This document shows positions 30,737-61,392 of a DNA stretch of 64,000 bases, piece after piece. The notes beneath the pieces are model-generated. The model had not been told where the DNA came from. It saw nothing but the letters and a program-made list of their open reading frames with translations, and searched no databases. Position 1 is the first letter of the stretch; the number at the start of each line of letters is the position of its first letter. A program made the translations under genes and the position numbers. The stretch comes from Rhizophagus irregularis. Lineage: Eukaryota. The stretch covers positions 5,270,001 to 5,334,000 of the forward strand of contig NC_089434.1 of the NCBI RefSeq assembly GCF_026210795.1, read 5' to 3'.

Positions 30737-30950
30737 CTCCTACTAGAAATCCATTATCATCTTATTAAAAAATTATTATCTGAAAATGGTTTACTTATAT
30801 TAAGCCATGGTTTAGGCTTATATATGCACTATTAAATTATTAAATGTTAATAAATACAAGTTAAATTTTATTAAAGAAGAACTTGCTGAATGTGGTATCA
30901 AGAAATCTGGATTTTGTGTTGTTAATAATGAAACTAATTTATCAGAAAAT
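30737..30950 (+). pseudogene. Isolated N-terminal fragment of an XPF/ERCC4/Rad1 repair endonuclease gene
   Basis: Reads LLEIHYHLIKKLLSENGLLILSHGLGL, then after a frameshift/deletion LLNVNKYKLNFIKEELAECGIKKSGFCVVNNET. This matches the XPF start pattern LLE....ELL..DGL.V.ARGLG...LVLN...V.NE as recalled, not searched. Confidence 0.65.
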
Positions 30951-30969
30951 TTTTTAAGATGCAGAACTG

Positions 30970-31210
30970 TGGAGATCTGTAAAATTAGCAGATTTCCACA
31001 TTTTTTATATGAATTTATGTGAAAGTCTATGATTTTGCAGATCTACACTTTTTAATTTTTACAAAATTTTGCAATAATCTGCGATTTTGCAGATTTCTGC
31101 TTTTTTTTATGTGAATTTATGTAAAAGTCTGCGATTTTGCAGATTTCTGCTTTTTTTTTATGTAAATTTTTGCAGAAATCTGCGATTTTGCAGATTTTTG
31201 CTTTTTTTTT
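30970..31210. repeat. ~50-bp tandem repeat (~5 copies) with palindromic core; probably a transposon subterminal array
   Basis: TCTGCGATTTTGCAGATTT at 31078, 31128 and 31179; degenerate copies at ~30977 and ~31027. Confidence 0.8.
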
Positions 31211-31294
31211 CATATTATAGGTTCAGAAAGTGATTCATCTCCAATAAATGGATAATCACGTAAAAATGCACTTTTCATAGTTACATTAGAGTAA

Positions 31295-31664
31295 TTGGAC
31301 GAAATTCAAGAATTAATTAATAAACTTAATATTGAAAATCCTTTTATAGCAAAAGAATACATTCAATATGATAATTCTGAAATTATAACAGATATAATAT
31401 CTAATGAAGAGATTTTAAAGGTGGTTCTTTCCAATAATGATAATAATCAGAAAAAAGGAAGTAGAAAATTCAGATCCTATTACTCATAATAAAGCTATCG
31501 ATTATTATGATAAAGTAATTCTCTATTTAAAACAACAAAAAAAAATTTTCAGTTCAAAAAATGAGAAACTGAAATATGTTAAAAAGCTAAAAAAAGAAGC
31601 TTTAAAACAATGTTTTTTTTCTGCAAGGCAAACTGATCTTAATAGTTTTATAAATGTAATTTGA
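31295..31664 (+). pseudogene. Tigger/CENP-B-like transposase C-terminal remnant
   Basis: EIQELINKLNIENPF.A.EYI.YD....D..SNEEIL, ITHNKAI...DKVILYL and RQTDLNSFI, split by a frameshift. Confidence 0.6.
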
Positions 31665-31737
31665 TTTATTTAAGAAGGTTTTTACATTATTGTGACATAT
31701 AATATTTCTATAATATAATAAATTGTAATGCAAATAT

Positions 31738-31996
31738 ATCCAGTGATCAGAAAAAAATGAAATATAGCTCATTGGAATCGTCTTAACGAGACGAATCTAA
31801 TGGTAGTAAAATCACATTTTTAGGATTAATAGTTAATAAAAAATTAAATAAAATATAAATGATACATTTTTATTTTTATATTTTACTTAATTTCTCATCA
31901 TGTATTAATTCTAGAAATGCGATTTTACTACCATTAGATTTGTCTCGTTAAGACGATTACAATAAGCTATATTTTATTTTTTTCTGATTACTGGAT
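31738..31996. repeat. Long inverted repeat (~90-bp arms); fold-back or transposon-derived
   Basis: ATCCAGTGATCAGAAAAAAATGAAATATAGCTCATTGGAATCGTCTTAACGAGACGAATCTAATGGTAGTAAAATC... is mirrored by ...GATTTTACTACCATTAGATTTGTCTCGTTAAGACGATTACAATAAGCTATATTTTATTTTTTCTGATTACTGGAT. Confidence 0.85.
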
Positions 31997-32939
31997 CAAA
32001 AGTTAGCAAACTGCCTGATTTAAGGTTACCTGTCTAAACCTCTCCAAAATTCTATAATTAGTTTCTCCAAGATTTTACTATAGTTTTATTATAGTTTTGG
32101 CAAGGTTTTGGCAGTTTTGGCATTTATAATAAGTTTCGTCAGGTTTCACTTTTCTCCAAAGTTTCACCAATTTTTTAATAAGATTTTCATATAGTTTCGG
32201 TAAAGTTTCACCATTTCAGCATTTTGCCAACTTGCCAAAACCCCTAGTTTCTCCAGCAACCTTAGTCTGATTGGTGATTGATTGATGCCTGATTTTTCAC
32301 TTTTTAACCTGTGAATTTAATTTGACTTTTTAAATAATTTATTATAGATATATAATGGATAATTCGTTATATGATATACTGAATATTCATTATATTATAC
32401 CAAATAATTTGTTATAATATTAATGATTTTTTTTTATAGTGAAGGCCTGATTGGCCAAACTACTGACTTCATTATATTGAGAGCTGATTTTATTATTTTT
32501 AAAAAATTTGGTGCACATCAAAATTTTTTGTACACATATGATATCACAAAAATGTGCACACTTACTTTTTATTCAGATTTTACATATTGCTGTATGGTCA
32601 CATGGTGCAGTGGCATGGCCCCACCCAGATATATAAGTCTTTATATTATAAGCATATTTATATTAGTCCAAGTTACTAATAAGCTTATTAAAAAAAAATC
32701 TATTATATAGAATTTTTATAACCACCCCAATTTTTTTTGGTCCTAAAAGGTGTGATTATATAAGAGTCAAGTGGTTGACTGAATACCATATTTGATATTT
32801 CCCAATGTTTCCAGTTTATTAAATTAGAATTTTATACTACTCATCTACTCCTTATTCTTTAACATATTTCAAAGCATATTTTACCACTACCCATTTTTTT
32901 TTGATTATTTATATTTCTGGTTAGTACTCTTCATGCTAA

Positions 32940-33185
32940 AAGAGTAAAAGTTAGGAACCGTTATTTCACTCTAGTCTATTTACATTATAGTATTCCATTT
33001 CAAGTATAAAGATATTATTGATAAGCTTCCAGAAAGCCTGGTTAAAAGAGCATATCAAAGCCTTTTGAATCACTCTAAAAATCCTATTCCGTTAGAAATG
33101 ATTTCTGGGAATTCTGATTGAATTGTATAAGTTTATGAGAATTGTTAAACTGATAGGAAATGCAAAAATATGGCCCAGGAAAAAT
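32940..33185 (+). pseudogene. Remnant of a hypothetical gene
   Basis: Open stretch KYKDIIDKLPESLVKRAYQSLLNHSKNPIPLEMISGNSD* followed by DRKCKNMAQEK; interrupted. Confidence 0.35.
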
Positions 33186-33237
33186 TGTGTCCCCGGAATG
33201 TAATGTATTCCCAGTATGAGGTTCCTTAATGGGGATT

Positions 33238-33522
33238 CCTTAATGTACAGTGGGGGTGTATGATATTAATGTACGAACTGGCCGGAGTTAACGTTAACGC
33301 TATCACGTGCAAGTGCATAACTCCTAAACTCGGGCCAGTTTGTACGTTAATATTGTACACCCCTACTGTACGTTAAGGACGCCCTCCTTAATGTACATTG
33401 AGAGTAACGTACAAACTGGCCGGAATTAACGTTAACGCTATCACGTGCAAGTGCATAACTCCTAAATTCAGGCCAGTTTGTACGTTAAAATTGTACATCC
33501 CCACTGTACGTTAAGGACGCCC
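33238..33522. repeat. Tandem pair of ~140-bp hairpin units, each with a CACGTG-containing spacer
   Basis: Unit 1 (33238-33378) has ~46-bp inverted arms CCTTAATGTACAGTGGGGGTGTA...AACTGGCC / GGCCAGTT...TACACCCCTACTGTACGTTAAGG. Unit 2 (33386-33516) has a deleted left arm. The spacer TTAACGTTAACGCTATCACGTGCAAGTGCATAACTCCTAAA is identical in both. Confidence 0.88.
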
Positions 33523-39247: not shown

Positions 39248-41929
39248 TATTTTAATTTTATCCTTTTTGTTATGGTTTTTAATATTAACATAATTCTAAT
39301 AGGCATAATAAATAAAAATACATAATTCAAATAAATTCTAATAATACTGTACTTATTAAATTTTTCTTTAAATTCTTATATTTACTTTTATCAAAGTTCT
39401 TATATTTAATTATATTTATTTATTATATTTATTAAGAATTTTATTTTACCTATATTTTCCGTGAATTCAAATCTTATTTGGATAGATAGCCGAATATCCA
39501 GATATTACCTGCATATCCGCATTATCTGACAGACATCAACGGATACTAATAACAGATAGACACGCTAACCAAATTTTAAGGATGATTTGCATGATACAAT
39601 CACACGAATTATTGTATAATAACAGATTATCAGAAGTACAAACCATTTTATCCCTAACTGTTCTATAACTGTTCTATACGACAACGCGTTCTTTCACCTT
39701 TAATACATTATTGGATCACCCAAAGAAGCTTTAATTATTATTATTTGGTAATTAAATTTATACTAATTAATTCACTCTTGTATCACCAGTATGACTTATT
39801 ATTATTATATAAGCATTAATTAAAAATTGGATATCCTGAATGTACTAGATATTCATCGGATAATGTAAATATCCGGATTGAAAGATAAACTCAAAATCGA
39901 CACTTAATTTATACTTTTTCTTCAATCTGATTAAATTGAACTGACTGATCTCACATGAAAATTAATCGCTACATGTCTCAGCCATATCTCCGTATGATAA
40001 AAAACCAATTTCACATTTTATACATTTTATTTATAATAAAACGTGTTTTTTCATTATCAAAATGGTTTTTCGCGTCGAGGTTTTTCTTTTAAATATGACC
40101 ACTTTCACCCATGAATCTTTTTCTTTTTAAAAAAAAAAAATTTTTTTTTTTAAGATGTTTAACTCTAATCCTAATCCTAAATTTGATACTATCAAGATGT
40201 TAAATTCTACTTCAATAAACAGTTTCTATAACATCTACAACATTGGCTTATCGACTATTAACAACGTAATGCTGAAGTATAGAACCGGCCATTCAGGTAG
40301 TAATTAATTAGAGTCTTTCTATCATATTCTTACCCTCATCATAACATTATTCATTTTTCTAGATTGGTATGGCCGGGTGACCACCAGAAATAGATAACTT
40401 AGCTCGGGAATATTGTACAGTACGTGTAAGTTTTCTTATTTTATTTTTTATCGTTATCTGTTATTATTAATTTCAAGATTATCTTTACTTATATAAGTAA
40501 TTTTATTTAACGTAGTGTTTTTAAAAATTCATGTGCACACCTCCACATATTTCCGCATATCTCGCACATAATTTTTTATAGTAGCCGTAGTGGAAAATAT
40601 TCAAATAATATTATAAATTTAGAATTGGAATTAAAAATTCTAACGTGCAGTTATTTATCATTTGTGGAGTTTTATTTTTATACAATTATATTCAGTTATA
40701 ATAATATATTATTATTTTCTATATGAAAAATTCTTTATAATAAGAAGCAATTCAAGGAATTAATTTTACATATAATACAATAAACATCATATTTTACTGT
40801 TATAGATTTATATATTTATGAAGTATAAACTATAAAATGCTAGTTTTGAAATTATCTTAAAAAAAAAACGTAATAAAAAAAACGTAAATCACTAAAATCA
40901 GTTTAATAAAATATAGAATACTTGTTCACGTTCTTGATTTCTGATACGTAATTTCTTTTTGATCGATTTCAAATATAAAACATAGAGACACTATCTTTCA
41001 TTTTATCGATGAGTAATTATCTAGAGCTCTCGCTTTGATTGATAATAATGATAACAATAATTTATGATATTCTAGATAATTATCAACAATTTTTTTGATT
41101 CGTTCGTTATATTATTGTGTAAATCTGATTAGTTTCCCTGATATAGATTTTGCCGTGTGGCAGAGTGGCATAAAAATGATTCAAAAAACAGAGAAAACCG
41201 GTGAATTTATTTTCGTACATCATACTTGGCTCTCCTAATGATATTTCTTGATCTGTATCAACCTCATTTACATTTATAAATAATCTTGGCCAAAATTATC
41301 AAGAGATTATTGTCCAAAATTAAGAATTATCTAAACTCCAAAAAAAAATTTCGGTAACGTGACTTGACGAATTTTATTGGTCAGATTTATCTTGTACAGC
41401 ATTTTATATCAGAAAAATTAAGTGAAGGAACATTTATCTTAAAAAGTTCTAGTAAATGAATACTGTTATTACTGTAAGTGCATATTATTATAACAATCAA
41501 AAATAATATAGCACATAGATACTTTGCATGTAGTTCTTAATGAAAAAATATGCAAAGAAATTAGTTTGGGTTCGGCCCTTTGGCGCTATTTCCAACAATT
41601 GATCGTGCTTGCTGATTAAATGTCGCATATTGTGATGGGGTGATGAGGAATTATTATTGTCAACATTGAAAAACAATAAGTTTCTTGGGAAATGAACCAG
41701 ATTAGATTCAGGATCCCAGAATCCCGGTTCATATACAGTAGTACAAAAAATTGGAATGTTTATTAATGTGGCATTGTGGCTGTGTGGCAATGACATTTAT
41801 TACGTAATATCTTAGGGGTAAAAGAATATGATGTATTATATGCGGGGTTAAGACTTATAACAAATGGATAAATGTCACTGCCCTAAGGTCGCGGTAATTC
41901 ATTTTATTTTTATTGCACTTTTCTTCTAA

Positions 41930-46097: not shown

Positions 46098-46849
46098 TAT
46101 GTGTTTGGCATTTACAAAATATATCAATATACCAAATTATCATTATATATGGGTTATCAGTGAATCATAATGCAGGCCAAACCCAACTTTTGCCAGCATT
46201 ATACAAACTCCAGATAGCTAATTAAATCTTATGTCATGTGATTTGGATAGAACCTTTATGTTAACTCTGGCTAAATTTATAGTGTTGGCCTGAATTAATA
46301 TCAGTGTAACCTAAAGTATCAGTACGATACAATTTATTATATAAAGGGGTAAAGAAAAATGTTACAACTTACAATCCGCTACATAATGCTATATAATTTA
46401 AGATCCAATCCAAATAGAAGTTGAAAAGAAATAGGAATCTGAATCCGAATCTTACTCTAAGAACTAAGAAATATTGAATATACGTTGCAAGTGTTTGGAT
46501 CTTAACTCTAGAGAACATATAAAATAAAAATAATATAAAATCCTTTTAATAAAATTCGTAAAAGGTATTCGTAAAACGATAATATGTTTTATCATTCAAC
46601 GATATATGCTTGCATAAAGGAATACGCAGTTTAGTAGTAGCATTCGCACCTTATATTTCTTGCTGCGCAAATATAAGATGTACAGTATTATGTAATATTA
46701 CGTAAGGTTCCAGGGCGCTTTTCCACAGCCCATTTTTATGCATTATCAACTAACAAATCAGTAACAAGATAATCTACATAAAAATTTGCATATAATCACG
46801 CTCAGTTGTTTTATTTTACAATAAAAAAATGCAAGTTAATACTAGCAAT

Positions 46850-47570
46850 TTAAACAAACGTGAATTTAAAAGAATTGGCTCCAGAAACATGGCAAAAGTT
46901 TGCCGTCTAAAGAAAGTTGTTGAAGAGGTAATTATTATACAAGTGAATTTTATTTTAACGTATATCAAATTTTTAAAACAACTCCATTCATGTTTTAGAA
47001 GATTGAAGTAAATTCTGGTAAAAATAATATTCATTTTTACGGCAATATAAGAGGTATAATGAATGCTTTAAATATTTTTGAAATATATATATATATAAAA
47101 TATAATTACCTTTTGTGAGACCTAAAATAATTTTTTCAAAATTTCGGTAGAATACGCTGATTGCGGTGCTCTTAGTGCCGAACTTATCTGGAAAGATAAA
47201 ATCAATATGGCAATTCAATTATTTCATGTTGTATTGTCCATACATAATGAAGGAATTGCGCATCATGATTTGGTAAATTTTACATTCTTATTTTTCTTAT
47301 TTTGTATTGTTATTATATTATAATTTTAATATTTGTTATTTATTGCATCTGATAACAGCGTTTCAATATTATGATGTTAATTCAAAAAAATATTAAATTA
47401 GCAAATCTTGGTTTGCATCTCAATAAGTATGCATTGGTGTACTATTATGGGAAATATCTAGTGGACATTCCCCGTTTCATCCTGAACCAAGAAATGCATT
47501 TACTTGGAGAATTGTAGAGACAACTGTTCCTAATATACCTAAAGATTATGTAAAAATTTATACTGGTAAA
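46850..47570 (+). pseudogene. Decayed tyrosine-kinase-like (TKL) protein kinase
   Basis: DKINMAIQL....SIHNEGIAHHDL|intron, IKLANLGL (decayed DFG), LLWEISSGHSP and PNIPKDYVKIYT|intron appear in kinase subdomain order. Confidence 0.75.
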
Positions 47571-50500
47571 TATAATATAATCTTATTCTCTAATTATTTA
47601 AATTATAAATATGCTTACACACACACATATATTTATATTTATTTATTTTTATATATATCTCTCTTCTTGTCATCATTTATGAACAGAATCCACAAATTCT
47701 TGTTATACTGCAAAGGACAATGTTGATGAAAGGAGATATCTCGCGAACGATTCTATACCTGAACTACAACCTGGGAGAAATGTCAATTGAAATTCACTCA
47801 CAATGCGGGCTCTGAGCATGTCCAATATCCATGAAGCGTTATAGTTGATTAGTTGATCTTACAAGGATGAAATGAAGTGGAAAATTTTATAACCCAATAC
47901 AATATCGTTTTTATGTATGAAAGGGATCTATAGGTGTATGCGGGACAAGTCGCTCAACAAATTAAGTAAATTAGAAACTTAATAATGAATTTACTCTTTT
48001 ATTTTTTATTTTTAAATAAAAATCTTTAATTAAAAAATTTAAAATTTTTGAATATTTGATCACATGAAAGTACGTGTCTTACAATTTATAAAATTCTACA
48101 TGTGGCAGTGCGTATCTTGCCATACGGATAAATGTTGATGATTGTCTTTTTCGCTTACGGATATGTTAATTTTAATTATCAGCAACTATAATCTAAAAGT
48201 TTCATTGCATCATTTAAGGAAGATTCCAAGGGTAAGTCTTTAATTTGGTTTTTAATTAATTCATTTTTATTTTTTTTTTTAACTTGGAGGTTTCATATTA
48301 AACATTAATACCTTAAATTTATTTTTTTGCTCAGAAGTCGATAAATTTTTATTGCAAGGGGTTTGGAATTTTTTGTTCTAAAATGACCAGACATCATAAA
48401 AAGAAATGATTTTTGTGTCAAATGTGATGATATTCAAGGGGGGAGGGGGATATATATATATATCAAGATTAGGGAAGCCATTATGAGCATGAAGGGATGG
48501 TGCGCACTGCATGGTTTAAGATAGGTGGTATCCGCCCAACTGCATCTAACATTCCTCAGGATAAAGGGTATAATAAATCATTAGATAAATTATGGAAGAC
48601 ACTGATAGTTTCAATATTAGTGATTACGTAGATATTATTTCTTCTCCAGAATATCAAAAAAAAAAATTTTTTTTTCTTTTAATCATAATTAATAAACGCG
48701 AATTTTATTAGTATATTCAAGGGAACAGGTTAAAGATCAGTTATGCAAATGTGATTAATATTATTGTTAAAATATCAAAATAAAGAATTTCACCCATTAA
48801 GAGATTATTCCATGTTCATTTACCATTCTCATTGATGAAAGTATTAATCAAGTACATTTTAAATAATAAATATAGATATCGATCTAATTTTAAAAAAATT
48901 TTCTGTCCCTATCTATGATACAGCATTAAATATTGCAATATGGATTATAATATTTTATTAATGGAAACATCTTAATTAGACTATTAATAATATAGAATAA
49001 AAAAATTATATGATAAATAAAAAAATAATTAATACATATAACTGTGGTGTTGAACACCAATGGTGTGATTTATAATTTTTGTAATTAATTAATTAATAAT
49101 ATTTTATTGTTATATATGATTAGAATAAATTATTATTCGCTTATCTCTCACCTCATTTTGATGTTTTTTTATTGTAAGAAGAAATCCGAAAGCTTTAGTG
49201 CTGACGAACTCGTGGTAAAGGTTTAATATTCTTTTTTTTAAAAAAATTTATACTTCAATAATTTTTTTTTTGTACTTGTAATCCTCAACCTCTTCATTGA
49301 TCGAAAATTGTGTACAATATCCTATATAACGCGCTTAAATATACAAATATATTGATAGACATCCTACATGAAGAAATATTCCAATTTTAAAATGTAATTC
49401 GAAATCATCAAGAAAAGAGCAATCTACTCAAGAGCTAGAATTCCTTACTTTTTCGCGCAAAAACCCGAAGGAATCTGATTTCCAAAATTGTCTATAATTT
49501 TTTTTAAAAAAATAAATAAATTAATTAATTAATTCTTGTCAAAAATTCTTACCAAAAAAGTTTCGAGGTTACTTTTCTAAAAATCAACTGCTAAAATAGA
49601 TTTGCAAGTTTAAAGTCCTTTACATACTATGTTTTTTTTTGTCACTATTCGATCCACAACATCATCATTTTCTATTATTAGACTTAGGAACGAGGTGATA
49701 CGTGGAGTAGAGTTACAATAACCAAATATTAGCGAACCCCACAAAGCGATCGATCCATCTCGCACAACGGTTCCCCAAATCCCTCGACATTGTGATCCAC
49801 ATCCTCGTATATTCTGGGATAATTTAGATGTGAGCAGTGTGTCGTTCAGACGTTATTGAAACCCATACTAGGATAGCAACCTTAAACCATCACCACCATC
49901 TTCTGATCCTTTCTTCAATTAATTTTTTTTTAATTCTCTCGTTGGTTGTGGTGTAAATTGTAATTAAAAAAAAAAAAGTGTGAAAGGATTATGGCGATAA
50001 GTTGATATATTTTATAAGTTGAATAAATTAAAGTTTTTAAAAACGTGGAGAATACTAAGGCAAATGTTTTTATTTCGAAAGATATAGTTTTTATTTTTAG
50101 AGAATAAAAATTTGAAATTTGATTTTGATGAAAGTTCAAACATGCCAAAAATGAGTATATATTGTTTGTTGGGTAATTATTTTAAATAAAATTATAATAA
50201 TTCAGTTTAATGACGAATGTAACATAAACACACAACAGACTTTTGAGAGACATCTCGTTTTGCAACAGATTTCTGAAAGACATCTTGTTTTGCCCCCCAG
50301 GAAATCACTAGCAGAGTTATAGAATCACCACTATGGTCTTTAGAACTCGAACTTCTATTAATGAATATCTACAATAAAAAAAATAAATAAATTATTATTA
50401 AAACGATTCAATTTGATGATATAACAAAAAAAATATTATTACTAAATAACATCACAAACAGAACTATAGAATTACCATTATATTCAGCATCAACCTTAAA

Positions 50501-52222
50501 GGTTACCCGCTGAGACCCATATGCGAAAATAAAAATTTAAGATATACAGATTTCAGTTATATTATACCAGATTCCATATTTTTTTTTAATTTTTTTTTTT
50601 CAAAATATTATTGTTTAACAAAGTCTTTTCCCGCTGATTTTACCAAGTCCCATTTCTTGTGCTAGATGTGCTAGATATTGGATGACTACTTTAAGATTTC
50701 CACCGTTTACCCACGCTTGATCGGATGTAAAAATGAATCATTTTCAAAACTCATTTGATAAATTAAAATCAAAATTTTGTTCTATCCAAGTTTCGGGAAG
50801 AAATCATATTGTAACAGCACCCTTTAACAGAAATAAAAGTGCTACCTTTTTTTAATTAATCGGTCAACAGACAGATTCCCATCAGTTTCAAGTTGATTGT
50901 TAATCGCTCATCGGATATACCGGCTCAATTATACAAGCCAAACCCCTTTCAGTCTAATAGATCCAACATCGACAGAGACAATGCCCTCGAAATCAGTTTC
51001 TCTTAACGATACAGAACAAAGAACTAAATTCAATTTTTATGTAAAAAGCTGGCCTCCACAAAGGTCTACTAGAAACCCTACTTGCTAATCTTTCGGCATT
51101 ATAACCTTCGGATGCAAGTTTGATAGGTCCCATAACAAGAAAAATTAATGGTTCCATATAGAAATAGTCAACGCCAAACCAGTCAGCGTTTGGTATTCAT
51201 AGTTTACGGAAGTTAATTAATTATCTCACGTCCTAAAAAGGCTATCATATGACTTAATGACGAAAGTCGAACCCTTTCATATAGTGCAGAAGCTGGCTGA
51301 CAAACGACGTAACTAACACTAATATTTTAAGAGTTTCGGCGCCTGTTTTTCCAACCTTTTGAAAAAAATCTGAAGATCTCGGCAAGTCATATGAATTTAA
51401 TTGATAGGTCAGGTGAGATCGACACTCTAACAGACGGTCGGGGCTTGAAAGATATATCTGCGAGTTTAATAGTATCCTTTAGACTTTAGTATAGAATTTC
51501 CTTTCCCCAGTTGTATCTTTTTCTTTGTTTTCCAGTTTTGTGAATAAAATAATAATCTACGCTTAAATCAAAATCATTTAATAAAACAACTTGATAATAA
51601 AAGATTTTGAGGGACTAAAACAAGAAGATGCAGCAAGTTCTAAAGAACAAGATCCTATGAGGCTGTGACTTTGAATTAAACTCTTTCTCGTTTTTTTTAT
51701 ATTCTATGTTCGAAAGGTGATAATTACATAAAATTTCAGATAACCGGGAAAACGTTAATTTTTCATGTTAAAGAATCTGACAAAGATTGTACGATAAAAC
51801 GTTTCTATTTTTACTAATTAATTAAGACTATTTGAGACGATATACACTAAACAATCATTTCCATATTATATATGATAATATGATTGAATTCACTAATCAT
51901 ATCAACATATGATGACGCCAAAAGCTTATTATGTAAACGCAGTGCTATTTACGGTTGGATTAGTTGTTATTGTTTCCAAATATATGCTAGAGATTTTTTT
52001 GAAGAATGTCAATTATGTTTCAAACTTTCAATATCGGAGTTCTATTCCTATCTCCATCTTCATATTTACCAAATTAAGAGATAAAAAATTTCACACGAGC
52101 TCATATACTGCAATATAATTGGATTTCACTAAAAAGAGGATGAGCGGAACATAAGCATTTACCATGGGCCCCTTTTTCACAAAAAAAGGCTTATCATCAT
52201 TACGGTGATTTACTGTATATGC

Positions 52223-53035
52223 TATATAAACAGGTTAGGGCTTATTCACTCAAAATAATTTTGAACTTCTAGCAAAAAAAATATTTTAACATTAAATTAA
52301 TGCACATTATAAATTCTTCTAATCTTTCAACAACTCCTCTTCTTTCACAAGTAAGAAAAAGGATGAGATAGTTATGCTGATTATAACAAATTTAAATTTT
52401 GACTAACGTATTTTTATTTCTTAGATACATTTCAAACAAATTATACAAGTAAACTAGGTACAGTAATCGTTAATCTTATTCTGAATAGTCATCAATTTCA
52501 AAATTTCAAGTTTATTTTGAACTCATTCCTTTTATTAATTTTTTTAATCTAAAGTCATGCTCAAGAAGAAGGAGACATCAATCTGGCTGCCTCGATATAC
52601 AGTAGCCAGATTGATGAGCGGCATAAATAATATAATAACAATTATTACTCTACGTAATAATTGTTATTATATTAGTTATGCCGAAAGTGCAAATATCAAG
52701 GAGAAATAGATTCGGTATTTGATTGTTTACTTAAACTGACTTAAACTGATCCACAACTTATTTAGACTTATTTTATTTATTTCTCTTTTTAAGTTGCCTT
52801 AACAATGCTATAAAAATTGGAGAGGCAAGCTTCTCCGAGGTATATACGGCGTACGCGCCTGAATTTACTTCCACACTTATATACTTCGGAGAAGTTATTT
52901 ACGGCATACGGGCCTAATTTTACTTGTATACTTATTTTCAACACTTTTAACTTTTTATTTCTTTTATTATTACTATTGTATTATTTATTACCTTTGTATT
53001 ATTTATTAACTCAAATTGATATTGGAAAATAAAAT
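52223..53035 (+). ncRNA. Candidate spliced multi-hairpin non-coding RNA gene, copy A
   Basis: TATATAAACAGGTT at 52223. Introns 52351-52424 (GTAAG...GACTAAC...TAG) and 52458-52554. Hairpins at 52576-52616, 52619-52683 and 52828-52896. AATAAA at 53028. No expression evidence. Confidence 0.55.
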
Positions 53036-53509
53036 CTATAAATTCACTTTTTTTTTTTAATAAAAATTTTTTTTTATACATTATTTTTGGTTATACGAGT
53101 ATTAGTCAATACTGAATGCTGGTTAGTGGTTAGTGATACTATATGAATAATTAACGAAATAATCAGATTACCGGCCAAAGTTATTATTACAAATAACAAT
53201 TTTTACTTTTTTTAAAATGAAATAATTAAGTCACTCCGGAGACCGGACAATACACTATGAAGATTTTGTAGTCACATGTACTGTACATTCCCGTGATATT
53301 AAACCAATAAAATTGAAAATAATTTTTTGCTTCGGAACAAAATTATTCATGGATAATAATAATCGATTACTCCATTATATACTGAATTTCATTGTAATAT
53401 TTATTTTGCAACTACAGATCACTAATAACTCTGATTTTTATTATAATAAACGATTCACATTTTTTTCACGTAATATTTAACAAATAAAATGAATAAAATT
53501 CTTTATTAT

Positions 53510-53800
53510 AATATAGTGAACACAAATGTTTTACAATATTGATGTTTTAATAAAATAGATACAATATAGTGAATACAAATGTTTTAATAAAATAGATACA
53601 ATATAGTGAATACAAATGATTTAATAGAATAGATACAATATAATGAATACAAATGATTTAATAGAATAGATACAATATAGTGAATACAAATGTTTTAATA
53701 GAATAGATACAATATAGTGAATACAAATGATTTAATAGAATAGATACAATATAGTGAATACAAATGTTTTAATAGAATAGATACAATATAGTGAATATAA
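53510..53800. repeat. 37-bp minisatellite, ~7 copies
   Basis: TAGATAC recurs at 53556, 53593, 53630, 53667, 53704, 53741 and 53778; unit AATATAGTGAATACAAATG(T/A)TTTAATA(G/A)AATAGATAC. Confidence 0.95.
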
Positions 53801-53869
53801 ACACTAAAAACCATAATAACCATAATAACTGATTTTGATCATTAACAATATTTTAAATGATAATTTAAA

Positions 53870-54660
53870 TAATAAATTATAACTAATGAGCATCATTAGT
53901 TATAATTAAAGAAGTAATTATCATTCAAATTTGAAAACCGCCCATTATAAGTTCGGTTCGACACTTCGACCAAAAATGAACAATACTTGAATCCATTCTT
54001 TCGTAAGGAATGGAATTCAAGAATTTCTGTAAGACAGTTATACACTCCGTCTTTCAAAAAATTGTGATACACACCAGTGGTGATAATTGATCACAAGGTA
54101 CTATGAGCCGGGTTCTCTGTAAGACAGTTCTACACTCTGTCTTTCAGAAAATTGGGATCCACACCAGTAGTGATAATGGATCACGTACTTCTACGAGCCA
54201 GTTTCGCTCATTCCGTCTCTCAGGACGAGTAGTGATAATAGATCATGAGGTTATAGTTCCGCATGAGTTGGTAATGTTTTTTTCTAAAATTTTCCCATAC
54301 GGTATGCTGTATAATATTTTAAATTTTAATTAAAAAAAACTTGAAATGATCCAATATGAAATTCGAAAAGTGATTATTCAATTCAAAACAAGAATAGTGA
54401 TCACTTTACCTCTATTAATTTTTGTAATTAATATTTTAGGGTTTCAACCTGTATTCAAGATAAAAAATACGTTAGTCAAAAAAACAAAATTAGTTATAAT
54501 CAGCAAAAATTGTGTATTTTCTCACCATGTTTTTCAAGAAAAACTGGTGAAGGCGAATTTTACGGAAATATTAAAGGAATTCGTGTGATTTAAATGGAAA
54601 AATGAATTTTTTTTTTTTAATTTTCGAATCTTTCAATTAAGCCCCAAACCTGTTTATATG
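53870..54660 (-). ncRNA. Candidate spliced multi-hairpin non-coding RNA gene, copy B
   Basis: CATATAAACAGGTT on the minus strand from 54660. Introns 54525-54449 (GTGAG...GACTAAC...CAG) and 54409-54307. The last exon has a 90-bp duplicated two-hairpin unit plus hairpins at ~53987-54021 and 53875-53907. Confidence 0.55.
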
Positions 54661-55519
54661 ACATATAAATCAGCAAAATAATAAGCCATTTTATAATATT
54701 TCATTGTGAAAAAGGATGGCTCATGTAATGCTTATGTTTGCTTATCCGCGTCTAAGGGAAATTCAATTATATTGTAGTAAATGAGCTCGTGTGAAGTTTT
54801 TTATCTCTCAATTTGTAAATATAGAGGTAGTAATGGAAATTCTGATATTAACTTGAAAGAAATAAATCATTGAGGCTGCAGGACGTATATTGGCGAATAA
54901 AAGAAAGTTCAAGATAATCAAAGACGGGTTCAAAAACAATAAACAACAATAGCCATAAATAGTAGTACATTGACGCATCAACTGTTAATTTAGCCACCAC
55001 AAATTGGTGCGATTATTTGTTTATTTGTTAGTCGATCAGATACATAAGTGATAAACTAACAATAACGCTAATCGCTGTACTATATCCCGTTTTGTTTAAT
55101 CATATAGAACAAAACTCTGGCCAATTATATTAATGCCAAACGGAATTATGATCACATCACTAAACTATTTCTAGCAATTTTAATTTAGGTACAGCACAAA
55201 AAACAAGCGATTCTTAAAAATAAATAAAGGTGATTTAGATTTATTTCATCTTTTTATTCTCTAACAATGTCTTCCATTTTATCTATTTTATCTGACACTA
55301 ATTCACTAAATTCAAGCTATCTTTCTATTAATCTCTTTTTTTGTTTCAACATAGTAAAAATAAATTAAAAGATTTGTCTGTTACGCCATGTTATGGCTAT
55401 GCCATTTATTACGTAATATCCATTCATTATAATTAATAAAGTATAATTTTAAAAAAGCCAATGTATAACATTAATAAACAAATAAAACAACATTTAAAGC
55501 TTAGTAATGATCTTATCAT

Positions 55520-56420
55520 ACGAGAAATAATATTTGATCTAATCGTATAATATGGTTCCATCTAAAAATTAATCCAACTTGGTGTGCAAATGTCCTGTAT
55601 TTTCTTATTCCCAAATCCATCTAATTAAATTTTAAATAATATTAAACTTTAACATTACTTCCTTTTATCCATGGTTTAACCAAGTAATAAAATTAAAAAG
55701 GCCTGTTGTGCGGCCTTAAATAATTGCTCCTTTCTTAGATGATTTAAAATTTTAAATCTAATCATTGAGTTTCCTTAAAATCTTGTAACGACAATACCTA
55801 AAAAAAAAGATGATAAACCCGATTCCTATCTTCAATAATAAATGCTGAAAAAATATAGCATGTAAAATTTAATTCTTACCAAAGAGGTTTTTTTGTGATT
55901 TCTTTTTTATTTTAACTTTAGGATTTTTATACCTAGTCCTGTCCTTCTATAATAATCTTTCTGATCTATCATTATCTTCCGATCTTTTTTTCCGTTCTTA
56001 TTGATTTTGGCGCTATATAATTACAAATAAAAGTTTCTGTATAGCTAAAGTTGGACGAGGAATTCATAGTCAGAAAAGGATATAATATAATGATTTAACT
56101 TGATGATGAACAAGAAAATTTTAATAATAAACCTTATAACGATCTTATAATCCTTCTTTTAAAGCAAGAATAGCACCTATTAAAAAACAAATAAATAAAA
56201 TAAATAAATAAATAAATTTTAATAGAAAATTCTTACTATAAAAAATGCACAATATGAACAATTTACGCGTTTTATAAATTCTTCTAACGCTTCAATTAAA
56301 ACAATAACACAATAACTTCATATTTACCTCTAATTTCGAAGAAAAAAGCAATACTTTCTTATTCGAATATTCTTGAACAACTGTACCAGTTAAAGTCAAG
56401 CAAGGTTCTGACATGTTCTA
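55520..56420 (-). pseudogene. Heavily decayed multi-exon gene, possibly a UvrD/FBH1-like helicase
   Basis: Remnant minus-strand splice sites and fragments FIIEDRNRVY and GAII.GRTTGLF loosely resemble SF1A helicase motifs. Confidence 0.25.
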
Positions 56421-57575
56421 CAAAACAATCATCCTCTTCATGAAAGTAATGTATTTATTAATGAACAGCTTTTATGAGAGTAATAAAACTATTTCCTAAA
56501 ATCTTATTGTAGAGGGAATTAATGATCATATGCTTGTCCTGGGAATAAAATTGGTTTTCTCTCTTATCAAGAAAATAGAGTATGTTGCTAGAACATTCAG
56601 TGAGTAAAGACATGATTTTTTTTAAAAAAATAGGAAGAAAAATGTACAAAATTTGAGTTGACAGTTGACGCACGAGTCGTGATTGTTGATATCAAAGGTT
56701 GTGGCGTAAGAGACTAAGAGAACATGCCCATAGTTAGAATTTCGATGATGATGTGCTGTATGGCATATTCAACAATAATTAAAACTATATAATTCGATCA
56801 TAACTTAAACTTCAAATCCTGTTTCCATAGAACATAATATTAGGACACATAATATTAAGTACATTAAAAAAAACTTGAAGAAAAAAAAGATCTAACACAA
56901 CTTCTCTTACATTATTATTATCAAAATATGTATGAAATTTTGAGCCTGTTGTTATGATCGATAACACTAAAAACTCTTCCAACCAATCTTCTGGTGGGAG
57001 ACGACAACCAAAGAAAGCCAAGGTTACGACAGAACCTTATACGCTTCAAAAACCAGTTCAACCGTCTACGGCTAACTTGACGAAAGTATTGTTAAAGACT
57101 TATTTTGTTTTTAATCTGCAGTGGTGAATTTTTATAAAATTGGACAATTGATTATTAATATCGATGAAAACAGCTTGGTGAAATGATAAAATAATTAAAC
57201 TGTACGGTATAATTACAAGATTTAATTTTCGTCTTCACGGCCAATTCTCAATAAGACGTTCTTTGTCTTCTCGTATCTCGATATATAAATGCCTTCTATA
57301 TGTTACTGATGTTAATTTAATTTTTTACAAGATAATAAGGGTTGGATTGGTAAATACTCGAATATCATTGTTGGTTGTTGATTCAACATATCTAATACCA
57401 CAAAAAGAAAAGGCCATTAAGGAACCTTAATGTTAATACATAGATTGCAAGAAATTTACAAGAAAATATAAAAAGTATACGAAAATAGCCACTAACGTGT
57501 TGAATTATTAAACAAAAGTGATTTTTTTTTCAGCAATTGTTAAGAAGGAAGGACTACATCAAAAGATAAAAGTGC

Positions 57576-57669
57576 TTAGCCTTAGGAGAAATTTACCGCC
57601 CATTTTAAGCTGCAATCCCAAACAACTTGACTCTTAGAAAGCGTATCGTAGAGCACAATGATCAACCGG
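57576..57669 (-). rRNA. Orphan ~95-bp fragment of nuclear LSU (25-28S) rDNA, near D1; non-functional
   Basis: Minus strand reads GATACGCTTTCTAAGAGTCAAGTTGTTTGGGATTGCAGCTTAAAATGGGCGGTAAATTTCTCCTAAGGCTAA, matching the conserved fungal LSU segment GAGTCGAGTTGTTTGGGA.TGCAGCTC.AAATGGG.GGTAAATT.C..CTAA.GCTAA. Flanks are not rDNA. Confidence 0.88.
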
Positions 57670-58319
57670 AGCATAATTAACACCTAGAGTTATCCAGCTA
57701 AACGAGACTCAATGATACTCAAAGGTTTTTCTAACCAAAAATACTAAGAGAATGAGCTCGAAATGGTACATTAATTGAAAGCGACAATAAAAAAAAAAAG
57801 ATATAATGATTACTATACCTTTAAACCAAATATGTTTTCATAATTTTGCATTTTTTTTTTTATCTTCCAATACAAAAAGTTGTATTATTTTAGACAGAAA
57901 ATTCAATTAAGTAGATCTCCCACAGTTTTCCTACTTTTATAATAATATATTTCTACACACATAATGTATTTCTACATACAAACGTTCTGATTAGAGTCTT
58001 ATAATCATAATAAATAAACATTATTTATACTAGTCGAAATTATTAGAAGTATTTAGGTACAGCTACTTTACCAGAAGAACTTACGGCAAATATTAAAATC
58101 GTAATTGATAAAAAAGTTGTACGACCAAGTTCGCCCAAATTAGAAACTTGTTTGGAATTCATCTACAGGCAATCTCATCGATCTTTGATAAACCGGATTT
58201 GGCACTATTTCGGATTTTTCTTCTGGAACCAAAATCTATACTATATTAAAAAAATCTTGATCATATTATTTCGACAATCATTTAGACATTTTTTTTTTCT
58301 CCGTTTAAACTACTTTAGC

Positions 58320-59600
58320 ATGAGAAAAAACATAAAAAGAAATCTAAATTAACTCAAAAGAAAGAACTTTGTGAAAAAGCGACACAATATGGAATTTTTA
58401 CTAGTATAGTTTCTGATATTTTAAAAAGATCAGAACATTGGCTTTCCATTGATACTACCTTACCAAATGCAAATAATTTTCGAGTATTTATCCAGAAGTA
58501 ACGAGCATTTGGGTTGATCAGAAAATTTCAGGAAATTTAACTATTAATGGACCCATTATCCAACAGAGTGTGCTAATTTACTTGACATCAATAACTTTTC
58601 AGCATTTGCATGATGATTATATAACTTTAAACAGAGAAATAATTTACATACATTTAAATTTAGAGGAGAATCTGGCTGGTTTCCAATTGATGAATTTCTA
58701 CGAACGAGAACTGAATTACAAGAAATTTTTCGACTATGAGTTTAGAGACATTTGGAATTGTGATGAAACTGCGTTTAGGATCATGTAAAACAATAGCACA
58801 TGATCCTTTACTTTGTAAAAAACGTCCTAAAGAACGTGTTAGCATTCTGGCAACTTGTAATACTTCTGGTTAAAGGGATTGAAAAAAAATCTCTTTCTGT
58901 CTGATACTATTAGAATTCAAAAGCTTGGATGTTTCCACCTAATATAATATCACTTCTTCAACCATTAGATTAAAGTATTATTTATAGGTTAAAAACACAA
59001 TATCAAAAATTGCTATGTAATTAAGGCTATGATCCTTATGAAGAAGGTGATCCAATTCCACCTCCAATTGGAAAATAGTATATAAAAAAAACGATTTTTA
59101 ACAGTTGGCTAAAATTGGAATCCTTCCCAATAATAACATTCCCCGGAAAGACTTTTTTCCGCGATATTAAAATTTTCAAATACTTATAAGACATTTAGAT
59201 TGTCGTATATTATTATCATATATGAGCGACATATGTATGTGCGAAAATCCCTGTCATCTCGGTAGAAACTTCACTTCGTGAATTAAAAAATCTTAAAAGA
59301 ATTAAATTTCATAGTCGTCTGGAGAAAAAACTTTGGATAATAAATGTCATGGAAGATTCTAAATGTTCTTCAAATAATTCTGACTGTGAAGAAGATATTA
59401 GACATGAATTACAATTATTGATTGATATTGATTGATGAGTTAGAGTTCACAGATCCTTTATCTGTAAATGACTATGAAATTTCTACAATAGTTGCATCAG
59501 ATAACATTGAAAATGTAATCAAATATCGATATATTCAACAAAAAGAAATGAAAAATTTAATAATTAAATTGAAAAAAGGATCTTTTTAATAATATAAACA
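58320..59600 (+). pseudogene. Decayed pogo/Tigger (CENP-B HTH + DDE_1) transposase
   Basis: QKKELCEK, QYGI.TS.VSDILK, DIWNCDETAF, KRPKERVSILATCNTSG, NSKAWM and PPNITSLLQPLD, in order, with many indels. Confidence 0.85.
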
Positions 59601-59819
59601 GAATAAAGCAAAGTGAATTAACCATATTAGTTTTATTTTTTATAAAAAAAAATGAATATAAATTGAATATGTACGAAAGTTTTATTTTCTTATAAAAAAA
59701 AAATGAATAATTGAATATGTATGATACAAGGTTTATTTTTTATAAAAAAAAATGAATAATTGAATATGTTACAAAGTTCTAATATCATCTATTCTAATCT
59801 AAATCTAAAATCTAATAAA

Positions 59820-60744
59820 ATCTAATAAAAATATTTAAAATTATAATAATATCAATCATTCTGTATCGTAAAGCAAACTATTTTATTTTCTACGAGAATA
59901 TCATTTTGTTTTTCCCTACGGTACAAAATGAATGAATTTGGTGGGCGAGCAGTTCTTTGCTCGTCTCACCTACCTCCACTGTTCAGTACCGTAAAGCAAA
60001 ATTCTAAATAAATAAATCTAAATAACCTTTTGTTTTGCTTTACGGTACCAAATCAAGGCCGAATGGTTTTTTACCTGTTTTACTAGAGTTTATTGGTAGG
60101 TATTGTTTGAAACCGTTTCTTGAACCGGTTCAAACATATCATAAGGAAATCTAGATAGATATCCTTATATTGTGAAGTTTGATATATATCATATGACATA
60201 TAATCATCACATGATATATATTCATAATATGAAATTCCATATTGGATCATCATTAAAAATAAGTTGTTCTGACAAAGGATTTGCATAAAAGCAAAAGGAA
60301 TTGTCGATCAGCGAATTTTTTGCAGAACTTTTGATGTCAAATGATGATGGAATTTCAACTGTAAAATAATTAAAAAAAAAAATTAGCATAAATTGAAATT
60401 TGAAAATGATTAATTCATAACAGGTTTAATGATTAAATATATACCTATATAATAATTCTATAATAATTTCGTTAATACTTAATGTATATTACAATTTTAT
60501 TTTTAAACCTGTTATCAAAAAATTTAAAAAATACGTTAGTTAAAAATCAAAATTAGTTATAACTTATAATGATAAATATAATTTTATCCATTTTCTTACC
60601 AGGAAGAACTTGTAAAAAAAGTATATGAAAAAGATTAGAAAAATGTGTATAATGTGTAATAAGTTTGATATAAAATTATAGATAGGTTTTATTTTAGTAT
60701 AGGTTTTTTTAATGACAGTAGATAAAACCCAACCTGTTTATATA
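59820..60744 (-). ncRNA. Candidate spliced multi-hairpin non-coding RNA gene, copy C
   Basis: TATATAAACAGGTT on the minus strand from 60744. Introns 60599-60509 (GTAAG...AACTAAC...CAG) and 60444-60359. The last exon is an almost continuous run of hairpins from 60357 to 59856. Confidence 0.6.
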
Positions 60745-61097
60745 ACAAATGAATTGACTGCGATAAACTATTTTTAGAATCTCTTTGTGAAAGGGGGGAC
60801 TTATATCCGGTATAATCTTTTTATCTTTTTAGAAAACAAGCTTGTGTGAAGCTAAATATGGAAATAGGATTAGGATAAACCTGGAGAAATGACTGTAGAA
60901 CTTTAACATTGATGAATAAAAAAAAAGTAAAAAATCGGCGTCTCTATTTTTTTCAAAAAAAAATTTCTTTAAAATTCCAAGTAAATTTACTAGAGCGAGA
61001 TATGGTCGCATGTAAAGAAATTATACTCATCTTTAAACTTGATTGAATTCCAACTCAAGTTATAGAAATTGAAGTTATCTTTGATTACATGTGATAT

Positions 61098-61392
61098 CAC
61101 TGGTCAAAAACCAATATATCGGGTAGCAGATATGTATCAGATATGTACCCGATATGTGTAGTATTAATGCAGAAAATCGGGTACCTGATATGTGTAAGAT
61201 ATATGTAAATATATATATCATATACATATCGGGTACCGATATGTATATGATATGTAAATGATATGTAGACGATATATATATTTACACATATCTTATACAT
61301 ATCGGGTACCCGATTTTCTGCATTAATACTACACATATTGGGTACATATCTGATACATATCTGCTACCCGATATATTGGTTTTTGACCAGTG
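61098..61392. mobile_element. Fold-back MITE with CACTG termini (CACTA superfamily), 295 bp
   Basis: Near-perfect inverted arms of >100 bp starting CACTGGTCAAAAACCAATATATCGGGTAGCAG; 3-bp TSD TAT at 61095-61097 and 61393-61395. Confidence 0.93.

Follow-up and report, generated by a model that had tools for sequence, protein, structure and literature searches.

Three paralogous, likely non-coding loci of Rhizophagus irregularis coincide with published root-upregulated small-RNA loci

Silvestri et al. 2019 (PMC6399891) catalogued the small-RNA loci of R. irregularis and defined a cluster 2, a 22-24-nt enriched class that is up in mycorrhizal roots. About 63% of its 819 loci are intergenic and of unexplained source; they are up in colonised roots, and cross-kingdom candidates have been drawn from the class (PMC6399891). 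The fungus has 21 putative RNA-dependent RNA polymerases (RdRPs) and 40 AGO-like genes, together with AGO-loaded, 2′-O-methylated ∼24-nt small RNAs. It also has a miRNA-like cluster on scaffold_28 (loci 338-345), whose loci measure 102-226 nt and gather 2,778-74,526 reads (PMC6399891, PMC9757828). In Mucor circinelloides, class II ex-siRNAs of 23-24 nt need RdRP-1 and Dcl-2 and also depend on Ago-1 (PMC3720535). Here we describe three cassettes, A, B and C, in a 64-kb stretch of R. irregularis DNA (the window) and compare them with these systems.

Promoter-like blocks and introns common to the three cassettes

Judged by their sequences, A, B and C are duplicated (paralogous) loci with promoter-like and intron parts in common. 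The promoter-like parts are:

52090..52101, plus strand: upstream conserved block TTCACACGAGCT of A, putative promoter element (motif match)
52171..52182, plus strand: second conserved block CCTTTTTCACAA of A (motif match)
52224..52236, plus strand: TATA-like block ATATAAACAGGTT of A, putative start region (pattern search)
54704..54795, minus strand: upstream blocks of B, at 54784-54795 and 54704-54715 (motif match)
54647..54659, minus strand: TATA-like block of B (pattern search)
60785..60850, minus strand: upstream blocks of C, at 60839-60850 and 60785-60794 (motif match)
60731..60743, minus strand: TATA-like block of C (pattern search)

With up to one mismatch allowed for it, ATATAAACAGGTT was found at three sites in the 64 kb (52224 on the plus strand, 54659 and 60743 on the minus strand) against 0.41 expected, with 0 of 100 shuffles reaching three, and TTCACACRAGCT also had three sites in the 64-kb window (0.33 expected; 2/100 shuffles reach three); these chance figures are too favourable because these patterns and that of the branch point were derived from A, B and C themselves. 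Alignment of the promoter regions gave z-scores against shuffles of 39.6 (AB), 6.0 (AC) and 10.0 (BC), and a motif search placed the upstream motifs of all three loci where a previous sequence-only reading had put them. Profile searches of the 64-kb window returned no fourth family member. RNA depth upstream of the TATA-like block of A was 0 in that bin in three of four runs, and Pol II probably initiates at this block.

The introns and the exon between them in A are as follows:

52351..52424, plus strand: A intron 1, predicted, 74 nt, with the conserved TTATAAC...GACTAACGTATTTTT (alignment and branch-point block)
52425..52457, plus strand: A exon 2, 33 nt, not conserved (alignment)
52458..52554, plus strand: A intron 2, 97 nt, GT-AG, confirmed (RNA reads and contig)
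52715..52793, plus strand: A intron 3, 79 nt, GT-AG, missed by the sequence-only reading (X4 contig, one X22 read)
54307..54409, minus strand: B intron 2, predicted, 103 nt (alignment; 3′ part RNA-covered)
54449..54525, minus strand: B intron 1, predicted, 77 nt (alignment and branch-point block)
60359..60444, minus strand: C intron 2, predicted, 86 nt (alignment)
60509..60599, minus strand: C intron 1, predicted, 91 nt (alignment and branch-point block)

The branch points are near consensus, and exact matches to the branch-point block occur in the 64-kb window only at 52401 (plus), 54477 and 60541 (minus). Alignment against shuffles gave z-scores (AB, AC, BC) of 10.2, 10.1 and 9.2 for intron 1, 4.2, 7.7 and 5.1 for intron 2, 2.6, 3.8 and -0.2 for exon 1, and 0.0, 0.1 and 0.1 for exon 2, that is, no conservation of the latter. 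Control alignments with six unrelated introns had a mean z of 0.13 and a maximum of 5.3 (n=36), so that intron 1 lies clearly above the control and intron 2 only partly; with this proviso, both introns are common to the three loci, as had been proposed.

Splicing of A intron 2 was supported by two reads in X21, one in X22 and the X4 contig (depth 27.3). Introns 2 and 3 are the two A junctions seen in all, and intron 3 sits within what had been taken as the last exon of A. The cassettes had been described as twice spliced: this stood for A intron 2, but the other five of the six predicted junctions (A intron 1, both in B and both in C) were not seen among the RNA-seq junctions, at low depth, and A has a third intron. 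At B, the contig runs to 54347 and depth at 54331 is 5 (X21) and 3 (X24); given this RNA over its 3′ part, the predicted intron 2 either stays in the transcript or is removed at other splice sites.

The last exons of A, B and C all have RNA reads, though at low depth. Contigs were obtained for the exon 4 segment 52816-53045 of A (0 differences), for 53768-54347 of B (X4, depth 25.2) and for 59744-59985 of C (its own contig, depth 5.6, one difference). Other places in the genome transcribe relatives of the A segment 52797-52936 (variant reads, loose ends at 52797 and 52936), and such copies contribute part of the read depth over the C last exon. Spliced A is present in a poly(A) library. The RNA libraries are unstranded, and B and C are oriented by homology to A. 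The cassette RNAs are short and likely non-coding, spliced in A and predicted to be so in B and C.

Structure and coding potential of the last exons

The 3′ regions contain the following features:

52555..52714, plus strand: A exon 3, with hairpins 52576-52616 and 52619-52683 (29/30 pairs) (folding)
52794..53045, plus strand: A exon 4, with a hairpin at about 52828-52896 (RNA contig and folding)
53768..54306, minus strand: B last exon with stem-loops, among them a 90-nt unit that is duplicated (54026-54199) (folding, repeats, contig)
59550..60358, minus strand: C last exon, 3′ end approximate, stem-loop string 59850-60358 (folding, contig)
53542..53801, no strand: 37-nt tandem repeat, seven copies, between the convergent 3′ ends of A and B (repeat search)

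As the sequence-only reading had noticed, the cassettes cease to align after the second acceptor (last-exon z 4.4 for AB, 0.7 for AC and -0.3 for BC, the AB signal being an AT-rich low-complexity tail), and their last exons are rich in hairpins. The 3′ regions fold far better than shuffles in all three (z -12.1 in A, -5.3 in B, -9.2 in C). Tiles of 150 nt with z<-3 made up 4/10 inside the last exons versus 40/416 outside (p=0.013), and at z<-4 the figures were 2/10 versus 22/416 (p=0.10). Hairpins are common in the genome at large and not confined to the cassettes. Most stems are shorter than 20 bp. An asymmetry between strands had also been claimed; the G-U excess does run in that direction but is weak, with G-U:A-C ratios of 4:1 in a strand-symmetric count (p=0.19) and of 11:5 in a gapped count of 16 hairpins (p=0.105; 10:1 excluding hairpin C1), the 16 being biased by their choice from the sense fold. 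The opposite strand folds nearly as well, the sense strand being better in 4/8 segments by z-score and in 6/8 by raw energy.

A 50-codon ORF (52557-52709) takes up nearly the whole of A exon 3, and a database search found no homologue of it; the 67-codon ORF of C had none among 1.84 billion representatives. Pfam gave no match for any frame scanned, whether one of six short ORFs of the cassettes or an overlapping one, none of 33 Rfam matches was at the gathering score, tRNAs are absent from the window, and metagenome scans yielded no homologue. Comparison of A, B and C revealed neither a structure nor an ORF common to all three, in agreement with the earlier statement on ORFs.

These data bear on whether the cassettes encode structured lncRNAs that act intact, as protein scaffolds or decoys, or micro-peptides, the antisense small RNAs described below serving only to regulate them. 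The conserved promoter-like blocks, which imply regulated expression, the ORF filling A exon 3 and the spliced A in a poly(A) library would fit; nevertheless, we hold this improbable given the lack of a common structure or ORF, the two ORFs without homologues, the comparable folding of the opposite strand and the third stem of A, whose main stem shows no compensatory pattern (3/4 variants from related transcripts elsewhere in the genome, unphased, break a pair). As far as their sequences tell, the last exons are unrelated structured ends on conserved promoter-like and intron parts. Most likely, their hairpins are fold-back cargo, either captured or formed on the spot, which may serve as an RNAi entry point, and not miRNA precursors.

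Small-RNA loci over the cassettes and their probable source

Published small-RNA loci lie over each cassette:

52242..53010, minus strand: locus 1289, over A, 632 reads, peak 25 nt, root-upregulated, miRNA: No
53633..54847, both strands: locus 1288, over B, 1,066 reads, peak 23 nt, root-upregulated, miRNA: No
59576..60608, plus strand: locus 1286, over C, 953 reads, peak 23-24 nt, root-upregulated, miRNA: No
60331..60349, plus strand: top small RNA of locus 1286, 19 nt, 5′ U (exact unique match, antisense to the C last exon)

Five published small-RNA sequences match the window and anchor it to scaffold_153; four, from Locus_1290, fall at 47165-47520 (read by eye). From these anchors, the scaffold position equals K minus the window position, with K 318,091-318,813. 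At the best offset, 318,360, published loci cover 2,665 of the 2,825 nt of A, B and C; offsets leaving each cassette at least half covered number 770/40,000, all within the anchor range, and the opposite scaffold orientation never covers all three. A, B and C thereby fall in the 22-24-nt enriched cluster 2 list at matching coordinates, with approximate locus ends and an offset that may be out by a few hundred nt; the pad of 200 blurs exon versus intron placement. The loci are therefore already catalogued, anonymously, in table rows that give no source transcript; we found no prior description of the cassette family in the literature.

The small-RNA evidence consists of the published locus tables, with strand called at 80% of reads, and one sequence from C. 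At least 80% of the reads of locus 1289 are antisense to the shown direction of A, and at least 80% of those of locus 1286 to the predicted direction of C; locus 1288 has both strands, without antisense bias. The loci are 769-1215 nt wide, spread over sizes of 21-25 nt, and annotated 'Intergene'. The sequence-only reading had seen in A, B and C polycistronic microRNA-like precursors, the hairpins of which Dicer would cut into guide/star pairs. Strong folds, spliced, transcribed and non-coding RNAs, the slight sense-strand G-U excess (4:1, 11:5) and a real miRNA-like cluster in this fungus are in its favour, and single precise stacks may exist inside the broad loci, since ShortStack joined islands up to 200 nt apart. 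We nonetheless consider it very improbable: the loci are broad, size-spread and 'miRNA: No'; at A and C at least 80% of reads lie opposite to the sense strand that carries the hairpins; the most abundant small RNA of C is antisense, and when its own strand is folded only 10-12 of the 19 bases are paired; most stems fall short of 20 bp; 3/4 stem variants in related copies disrupt the A stem; and no family reached the Rfam gathering score. None of the ten published miRNA-like loci of R. irregularis lies on scaffold_153, and a search of the window with three mature sequences of the scaffold_28 cluster gave 0 matches at up to three mismatches. What survives of the proposal is a paralogous, transcribed family, spliced at least in A, that gives rise to small RNAs, not a miRNA-type output.

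Since most A and C reads run against the direction of the transcript, shown for A and predicted for C, they point to an RNA-copying siRNA pathway. Our preferred reading, with a probability of roughly 0.6, is that the cassette RNAs are copied by RdRP into siRNAs that silence their own loci and related transcripts during root colonisation. A, B and C would be transcribed at low level from the putative common promoter, their RNAs copied by RdRP and cut into siRNAs, and these would silence the loci of origin and related transcripts in the root-colonising stage; RdRP, Dicer and Argonaute are presumed to take part, and silencing may act in cis or in trans. Against this stand the double-stranded B locus without antisense bias, the orientation of B and C by homology in unstranded libraries, the 19-nt length of the top C small RNA, below the 23-24-nt peak of locus 1286, and the chance that antisense reads come from a transcript of the opposite strand or, in the case of A, from transcription of the convergent B running past its end. 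Small RNAs also arise from neighbours that have none of the shared parts, among them a separate unit:

55221..58042, minus strand: M, multi-intron transcript with no ORF over about 50 codons and without the shared parts (RNA)

Locus 1287 (112 reads) covers M, which holds a decayed LSU rRNA piece at 57578-57758. Seven small-RNA loci (1285-1291) occupy 21 kb of scaffold_153, and M, a kinase-like remnant under locus 1290 and locus 1291 all yield small RNAs without the shared parts. These parts are thus not required for small-RNA output, and any dedicated role of theirs is hypothetical. Pseudogene, transposase-like and rRNA remnants lie near the cassettes. Elsewhere in the window, the ORF 20180-21904 shares 100% identity with R. 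irregularis RirG_076060, whose cluster includes GLOIN_2v1842993, and the ORF at 35552 has GLOIN_2v1637672 (83%) as its best named match.

Such surroundings would suit detached promoters and 5′-UTR introns of a coding gene family or transposon, left beside repeat debris, with functionless RNAs caught by region-wide RNAi. Besides the seven loci in 21 kb and the nearby remnants, the abundant small RNAs from young regions reported by Manley et al., the related copies of the 3′ segments elsewhere and the hairpins common in the window agree with this idea. It is rather unlikely in our view, as the intron interiors are alignable (intron 1 z 9-10) and the exon between them is not (z about 0), which suggests selection on the copies or on a recent source, and as each of the three copies has a densely structured end (p=0.013 at z<-3, only 0.10 at z<-4). 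Extending the siRNA reading, a modular family of siRNA factories, in which the conserved promoter and both introns act as a splicing-coupled RdRP licence in root-colonising mycelium, 3′ cargo is freely swapped and Argonautes are thereby directed to related fungal transcripts and possibly host mRNAs, is doubtful.

Three cluster 2 loci now have a concrete source, paralogous and likely non-coding genes, with antisense reads at A and C, and public reads that already exist make the question of biogenesis testable. Should the conserved introns route RNA to RdRP, siRNA production in this fungus, with its 21 RdRPs and 40 Argonautes, would have a portable signal; should they not, the cassettes still warn against taking every hairpin-rich non-coding RNA of this genome for a miRNA precursor.

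Comparison with known small-RNA systems

Plant TAS loci produce Pol II non-coding RNAs that RdRP turns into siRNAs acting in trans. The cassettes differ from them in the spread of sizes over 21-25 nt, and a search at up to three mismatches found no trigger site for three abundant fungal miRNA-like RNAs of the ten published. Within R. irregularis, A, B and C coincide with the intergenic, root-upregulated cluster 2 loci 1289, 1288 and 1286, which PMC6399891 lists as table rows, with no common promoter or introns, splicing, hairpins or antisense relation to an unannotated transcript. Like the cassettes, the scaffold_28 loci are clustered, intergenic and hairpin-forming; unlike them, they are short and single-stranded, show guide/star pairs and gather reads by the thousands or tens of thousands.

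Cryptococcus SCANR (PMC6643885) and the S. pombe dg ncRNA intron (PMC5322907) link intron-bearing RNAs and inefficient splicing to RdRP. The cassettes resemble these cases in that intron interiors are their most conserved transcribed part and B intron 2 is partly RNA-covered, but their branch points are near consensus rather than weak, and neighbours without these introns give small RNAs. Mucor class II ex-siRNAs (PMC3720535) come from a related fungal lineage and are endogenous siRNAs of 23-24 nt made from spliced transcripts, as those of A, B and C would be. The cassette loci peak at 25, 23 and 24 nt and are antisense or on both strands; however, the Mucor siRNAs derive from exons of protein-coding genes, whereas no protein-coding template was found for A, B and C, whose templates look non-coding and paralogous.

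Shared and diverged segments of the three cassettes

Three blocks, namely the TATA-like 13-mer, the 12-mer upstream and the block at the branch point, occurred in exactly three places each, those that a sequence-only reading had assigned to cassette A (plus strand, from 52223), cassette B (minus strand, from 54660) and cassette C (minus strand, from 60744), and profiles built from these blocks found no fourth family copy in the window. We gauged conservation segment by segment, comparing pairwise alignments with shuffled sequence. The promoter region was alignable in all three pairs (z 6-40), as was intron 1 (z 9-10), while the alignment of intron 2 was weaker (z 4.2-7.7); in control alignments of unrelated introns the maximum z was 5.3 and the mean 0.13 (n=36). 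Exon 2, located between both introns, could not be aligned (z about 0), and neither could the last exons, as had been claimed, with the exception of an AT-rich tail common to A and B. This pattern of alignable promoter and introns versus unalignable exon 2 and last exons is unusual. The intron-1 acceptors of B (54446-54455, minus strand) and C (60505-60514, minus strand) read ACAGGTT, as does the end of the TATA-like block, and thus this block may alternatively be read as a splice acceptor; RNA reads over 51900-61000 contained no exon upstream of it. Metagenome scans returned 0 loci for the intron-1 pattern and 94 loci, with 0 homologues, for the promoter pattern. L039, the sole BLAST match among these 94, did not align and was rejected as a homologue; the ORF downstream of its promoter-pattern match is presumably a giant-virus major capsid gene.

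Spliced models of A, B and C yielded only short, unrelated ORFs, in agreement with the proposed lack of a shared ORF. A 50-codon ORF in A had 0 candidate homologues, a 67-codon ORF in C had 0 matches among 1.84 billion representatives and Pfam gave 0 matches on the cassette frames. With neither homologue nor Pfam match, a micro-peptide reading was rejected.

Transcription, splicing and folding

Four of 24 listed runs supplied the RNA evidence for the region 51900-61000. Two are poly(A) RNA-seq read sets and a third is a probable RNA read set; the fourth is a contig set, guessed to be RNA, in which spliced contigs are present. RNA reads lay on all three last exons at low depth; in the promoter bins, depth was at or near zero for A and B and 0.1-0.6 for C in the three read sets. 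The cassettes had been predicted to be spliced twice: at a listing threshold of three reads or one contig, intron 2 of A (52458-52554, GT-AG, plus strand) appeared in three runs, whereas the other five of the six junctions were unlisted. A third intron of A (52715-52793), which had not been predicted, was present in two runs, and at B a contig extended 40 nt inside predicted intron 2. The RNA libraries were unstranded, so B and C were oriented by their homology with A. A good deal of the depth on 52797-52936 (A) and on parts of C came from reads with several differences, with foreign flanks at A; these variant reads represent related transcripts that originate elsewhere in the genome or in another isolate. 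The segment 52797-52936, part of exon 4 of A, contains an internal 55-nt repeat and has at least two related transcribed versions elsewhere, whose abundance in the poly(A) reads is similar to or greater than that of A itself. Minor-spliceosome introns were rejected on the basis of donors (GTAAGA/GTGAGA) unlike the U12-type consensus used for comparison, and a snoRNA-host or mirtron idea was rejected because folding of the introns did not surpass that of shuffled sequence (z -1.6 to +1.6).

The strong folding ascribed to the 3′ regions was borne out against shuffles (z -12.1 for A, -5.3 for B and -9.2 for C). As the window is rich in other strong folds, enrichment in the last exons was modest: 4 of 10 tiles inside exons versus 40 of 416 outside had z<-3 (p=0.013), and 2 of 10 versus 22 of 416 had z<-4 (p=0.10). 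Very strong folds at 30901-33450 (150-nt tiles; z -13 at 31051, -20 at 31801 and -11 at 33301) are probably transposon-type inverted repeats. The G-U asymmetry claimed for the sense strand proved weak, with a G-U:A-C ratio of 4:1 in a strand-symmetric count (p=0.19) and, when the count was biased to the sense strand, of 11:5 (p=0.105; 10:1 without one poorly aligned hairpin), and fold z was better on the sense strand in four of eight segments. Three of four variants (unphased) from related transcripts break a pair in the main stem of A. Rfam returned miRNA models only, all sub-threshold and mostly on the inverted repeat at 61.1-61.4 kb.

Small-RNA loci over the cassettes and their neighbours

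For the JGI assembly, Silvestri et al. 2019 listed 2,131 small-RNA loci, of which 19 are on scaffold_153 (PMC6399891). This scaffold was reached via a protein ID close to GLOIN_2v1637672 (POG68423), the best named match of the ORF at 35552; the ion-channel-like ORF 20180-21904 is 100% identical to R. irregularis RirG_076060, whose cluster includes GLOIN_2v1842993 (POG68425). Four Locus_1290 small RNAs (sequences from PMC6399891) match 47165-47520 by eye, two per strand, and the small RNA with the highest abundance in Cluster_1286 (PMC11982788 Table S1) has an exact, single match at 60331-60349 on the plus strand. That table holds one of six queried loci (1286), being restricted to small RNAs for which a plant target is predicted. 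Both anchors place the window on the scaffold in inverted orientation (scaffold = K - window), with K at 317,927-318,813 from the former and the lower bound lifted to 318,091 by the latter. The best independent offset for published loci on A, B and C was 318,360, covering 2,665 of 2,825 nt, and the offsets that covered each cassette by at least half (770 of 40,000) were all inside the anchor range. A same-orientation mapping was rejected, as it never covered A, B and C all by at least half and would also place the ion-channel gene beneath a locus listed as intergenic. From the anchors and the independent offset, loci were assigned to the cassettes and to M, a separate minus-strand transcript between B and C.

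Published small-RNA loci and assigned features (locus data from the tables of PMC6399891)
Locus 1289: A; 769 nt; 632 reads; peak 25 nt; '+' on scaffold, window minus
Locus 1288: B; 1,215 nt; 1,066 reads; peak 23 nt; both strands
Locus 1287: M; 112 reads
Locus 1286: C; 1,033 nt; 953 reads; peak 23-24 nt; '-' on scaffold, window plus

The tables place all four in cluster 2, as intergenic loci that are upregulated in mycorrhizal roots and carry the label 'miRNA: No' (PMC6399891). A strand label requires 80% of the reads of a locus (PMC6399891); locus 1289 reads are antisense to A, and those of locus 1286 are antisense to the predicted direction of C, in agreement with the sequenced C small RNA. 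Reads are placed at the level of loci, which were merged across 200 nt (PMC6399891).

The cassettes had been read as polycistronic microRNA-like precursors, which the loci over them argue against, being broad, 21-25 nt, antisense or two-stranded and not called as miRNA. In contrast, seven miRNA-like loci on scaffold_28 span 102-226 nt with 2,778-74,526 reads (PMC6399891). Identity of A, B and C with published miRNA-like loci was rejected, since those map to other scaffolds in the tables of PMC6399891 and PMC9757828. Three published miRNA-like sequences tested had 0 matches in the window, and none of six cross-kingdom RisRNAs given in PMC13106029 was traced to it (three searched, three by eye only). 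Beginning with U, the small RNA of C spans nucleotides 10-28 of the C last exon; with 10-12 of its 19 bases paired in the own-strand fold, it forms no miRNA duplex on either strand.

Neighbouring features in the window
9330-12502 and 3376-4550, minus: Transposase_21 (CACTA-type) ORF, 668 codons, and PIF1-like helicase fragments
19015-24018, plus: ion-transport (TRP-like) gene; C-terminal exon repetitive, Q/N-rich
About 40300-41200, plus: GT-AG intron-like stretches beneath locus 1291
46829-47750, plus: broken protein-kinase-like remnant beneath locus 1290
55221-58042, minus: M, with six introns plus one alternative and no ORF above about 50 codons
58477-58873, plus: frameshifted transposase-like stretch between M and C
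61098-61392: inverted repeat just upstream of C; 133-nt arms, 95% complementary

We take the motifs in 46829-47750 to be those of a protein kinase (0 Pfam matches on two short frames) and those in 58477-58873 to be those of a pogo/Tigger DDE transposase (no significant Pfam match). The TRP-like gene belongs to a large Glomeromycotina family. M contains a decayed LSU rRNA fragment (57578-57758), within which one splice acceptor falls. The inverted repeat is a candidate for locus 1285 or for adjoining it, depending on the offset; this locus (322 nt; 1,313 reads of 18-20 nt) is up in extraradical mycelium (PMC6399891). Locus 1290 has 6,639 reads on both strands, with Medicago mRNA targets predicted for four of its small RNAs, and locus 1291 has 2,590 reads (PMC6399891), which would likewise be antisense to the plus-strand intron-like stretches.

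Origin of the small RNAs

RdRP copying is the simplest account of broad, 21-25 nt, antisense or two-stranded reads over spliced RNA. The A, B and C RNAs would be copied by an RdRP and the products diced and then loaded on Argonaute; since related copies of the 3′ segments are transcribed, the resulting siRNAs would be able to act in trans. Drawn at the locus level, and with the direction of B and C taken by homology, we give this account a probability of roughly 0.6. In R. irregularis there are 21 putative RdRPs along with 40 AGO-like genes (PMC6399891), as well as methylated, AGO-loaded ~24-nt RNAs (10.1101/2021.03.30.436303). It is possible that the antisense small RNAs derive instead from antisense or read-through transcription.

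Under RdRP copying, the shared promoter-like blocks and introns could further be conceived as a chassis dedicated to siRNA production, carrying exchangeable 3′ cargo. Intron interiors are kept better than exons, as would be expected of sequences with a signal in them, and in Cryptococcus (PMC6643885) and S. pombe (PMC5322907) RNAi draws on introns. However, seven small-RNA loci lie within 21 kb, including those on M and the kinase-like remnant, which lack the shared parts, and young genomic regions in R. irregularis give abundant small RNAs (PMC10234402). We consider such a modular siRNA factory improbable.

The A, B and C loci are already in print as anonymous rows of a table (PMC6399891). 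The literature covered, mostly outside subscription papers, offered no account for R. irregularis of spliced non-coding paralogues whose promoter and introns are conserved, and no description of antisense bias at such loci. Class II ex-siRNAs of Mucor are 23-24 nt long and dependent on RdRP-1/Dcl-2 (PMC3720535), and at a Gigaspora locus, 98% antisense orientation relative to an endogenised viral gene was interpreted as silencing (PMC7082362). We rate A, B and C as a variant of endogenous siRNA source loci.
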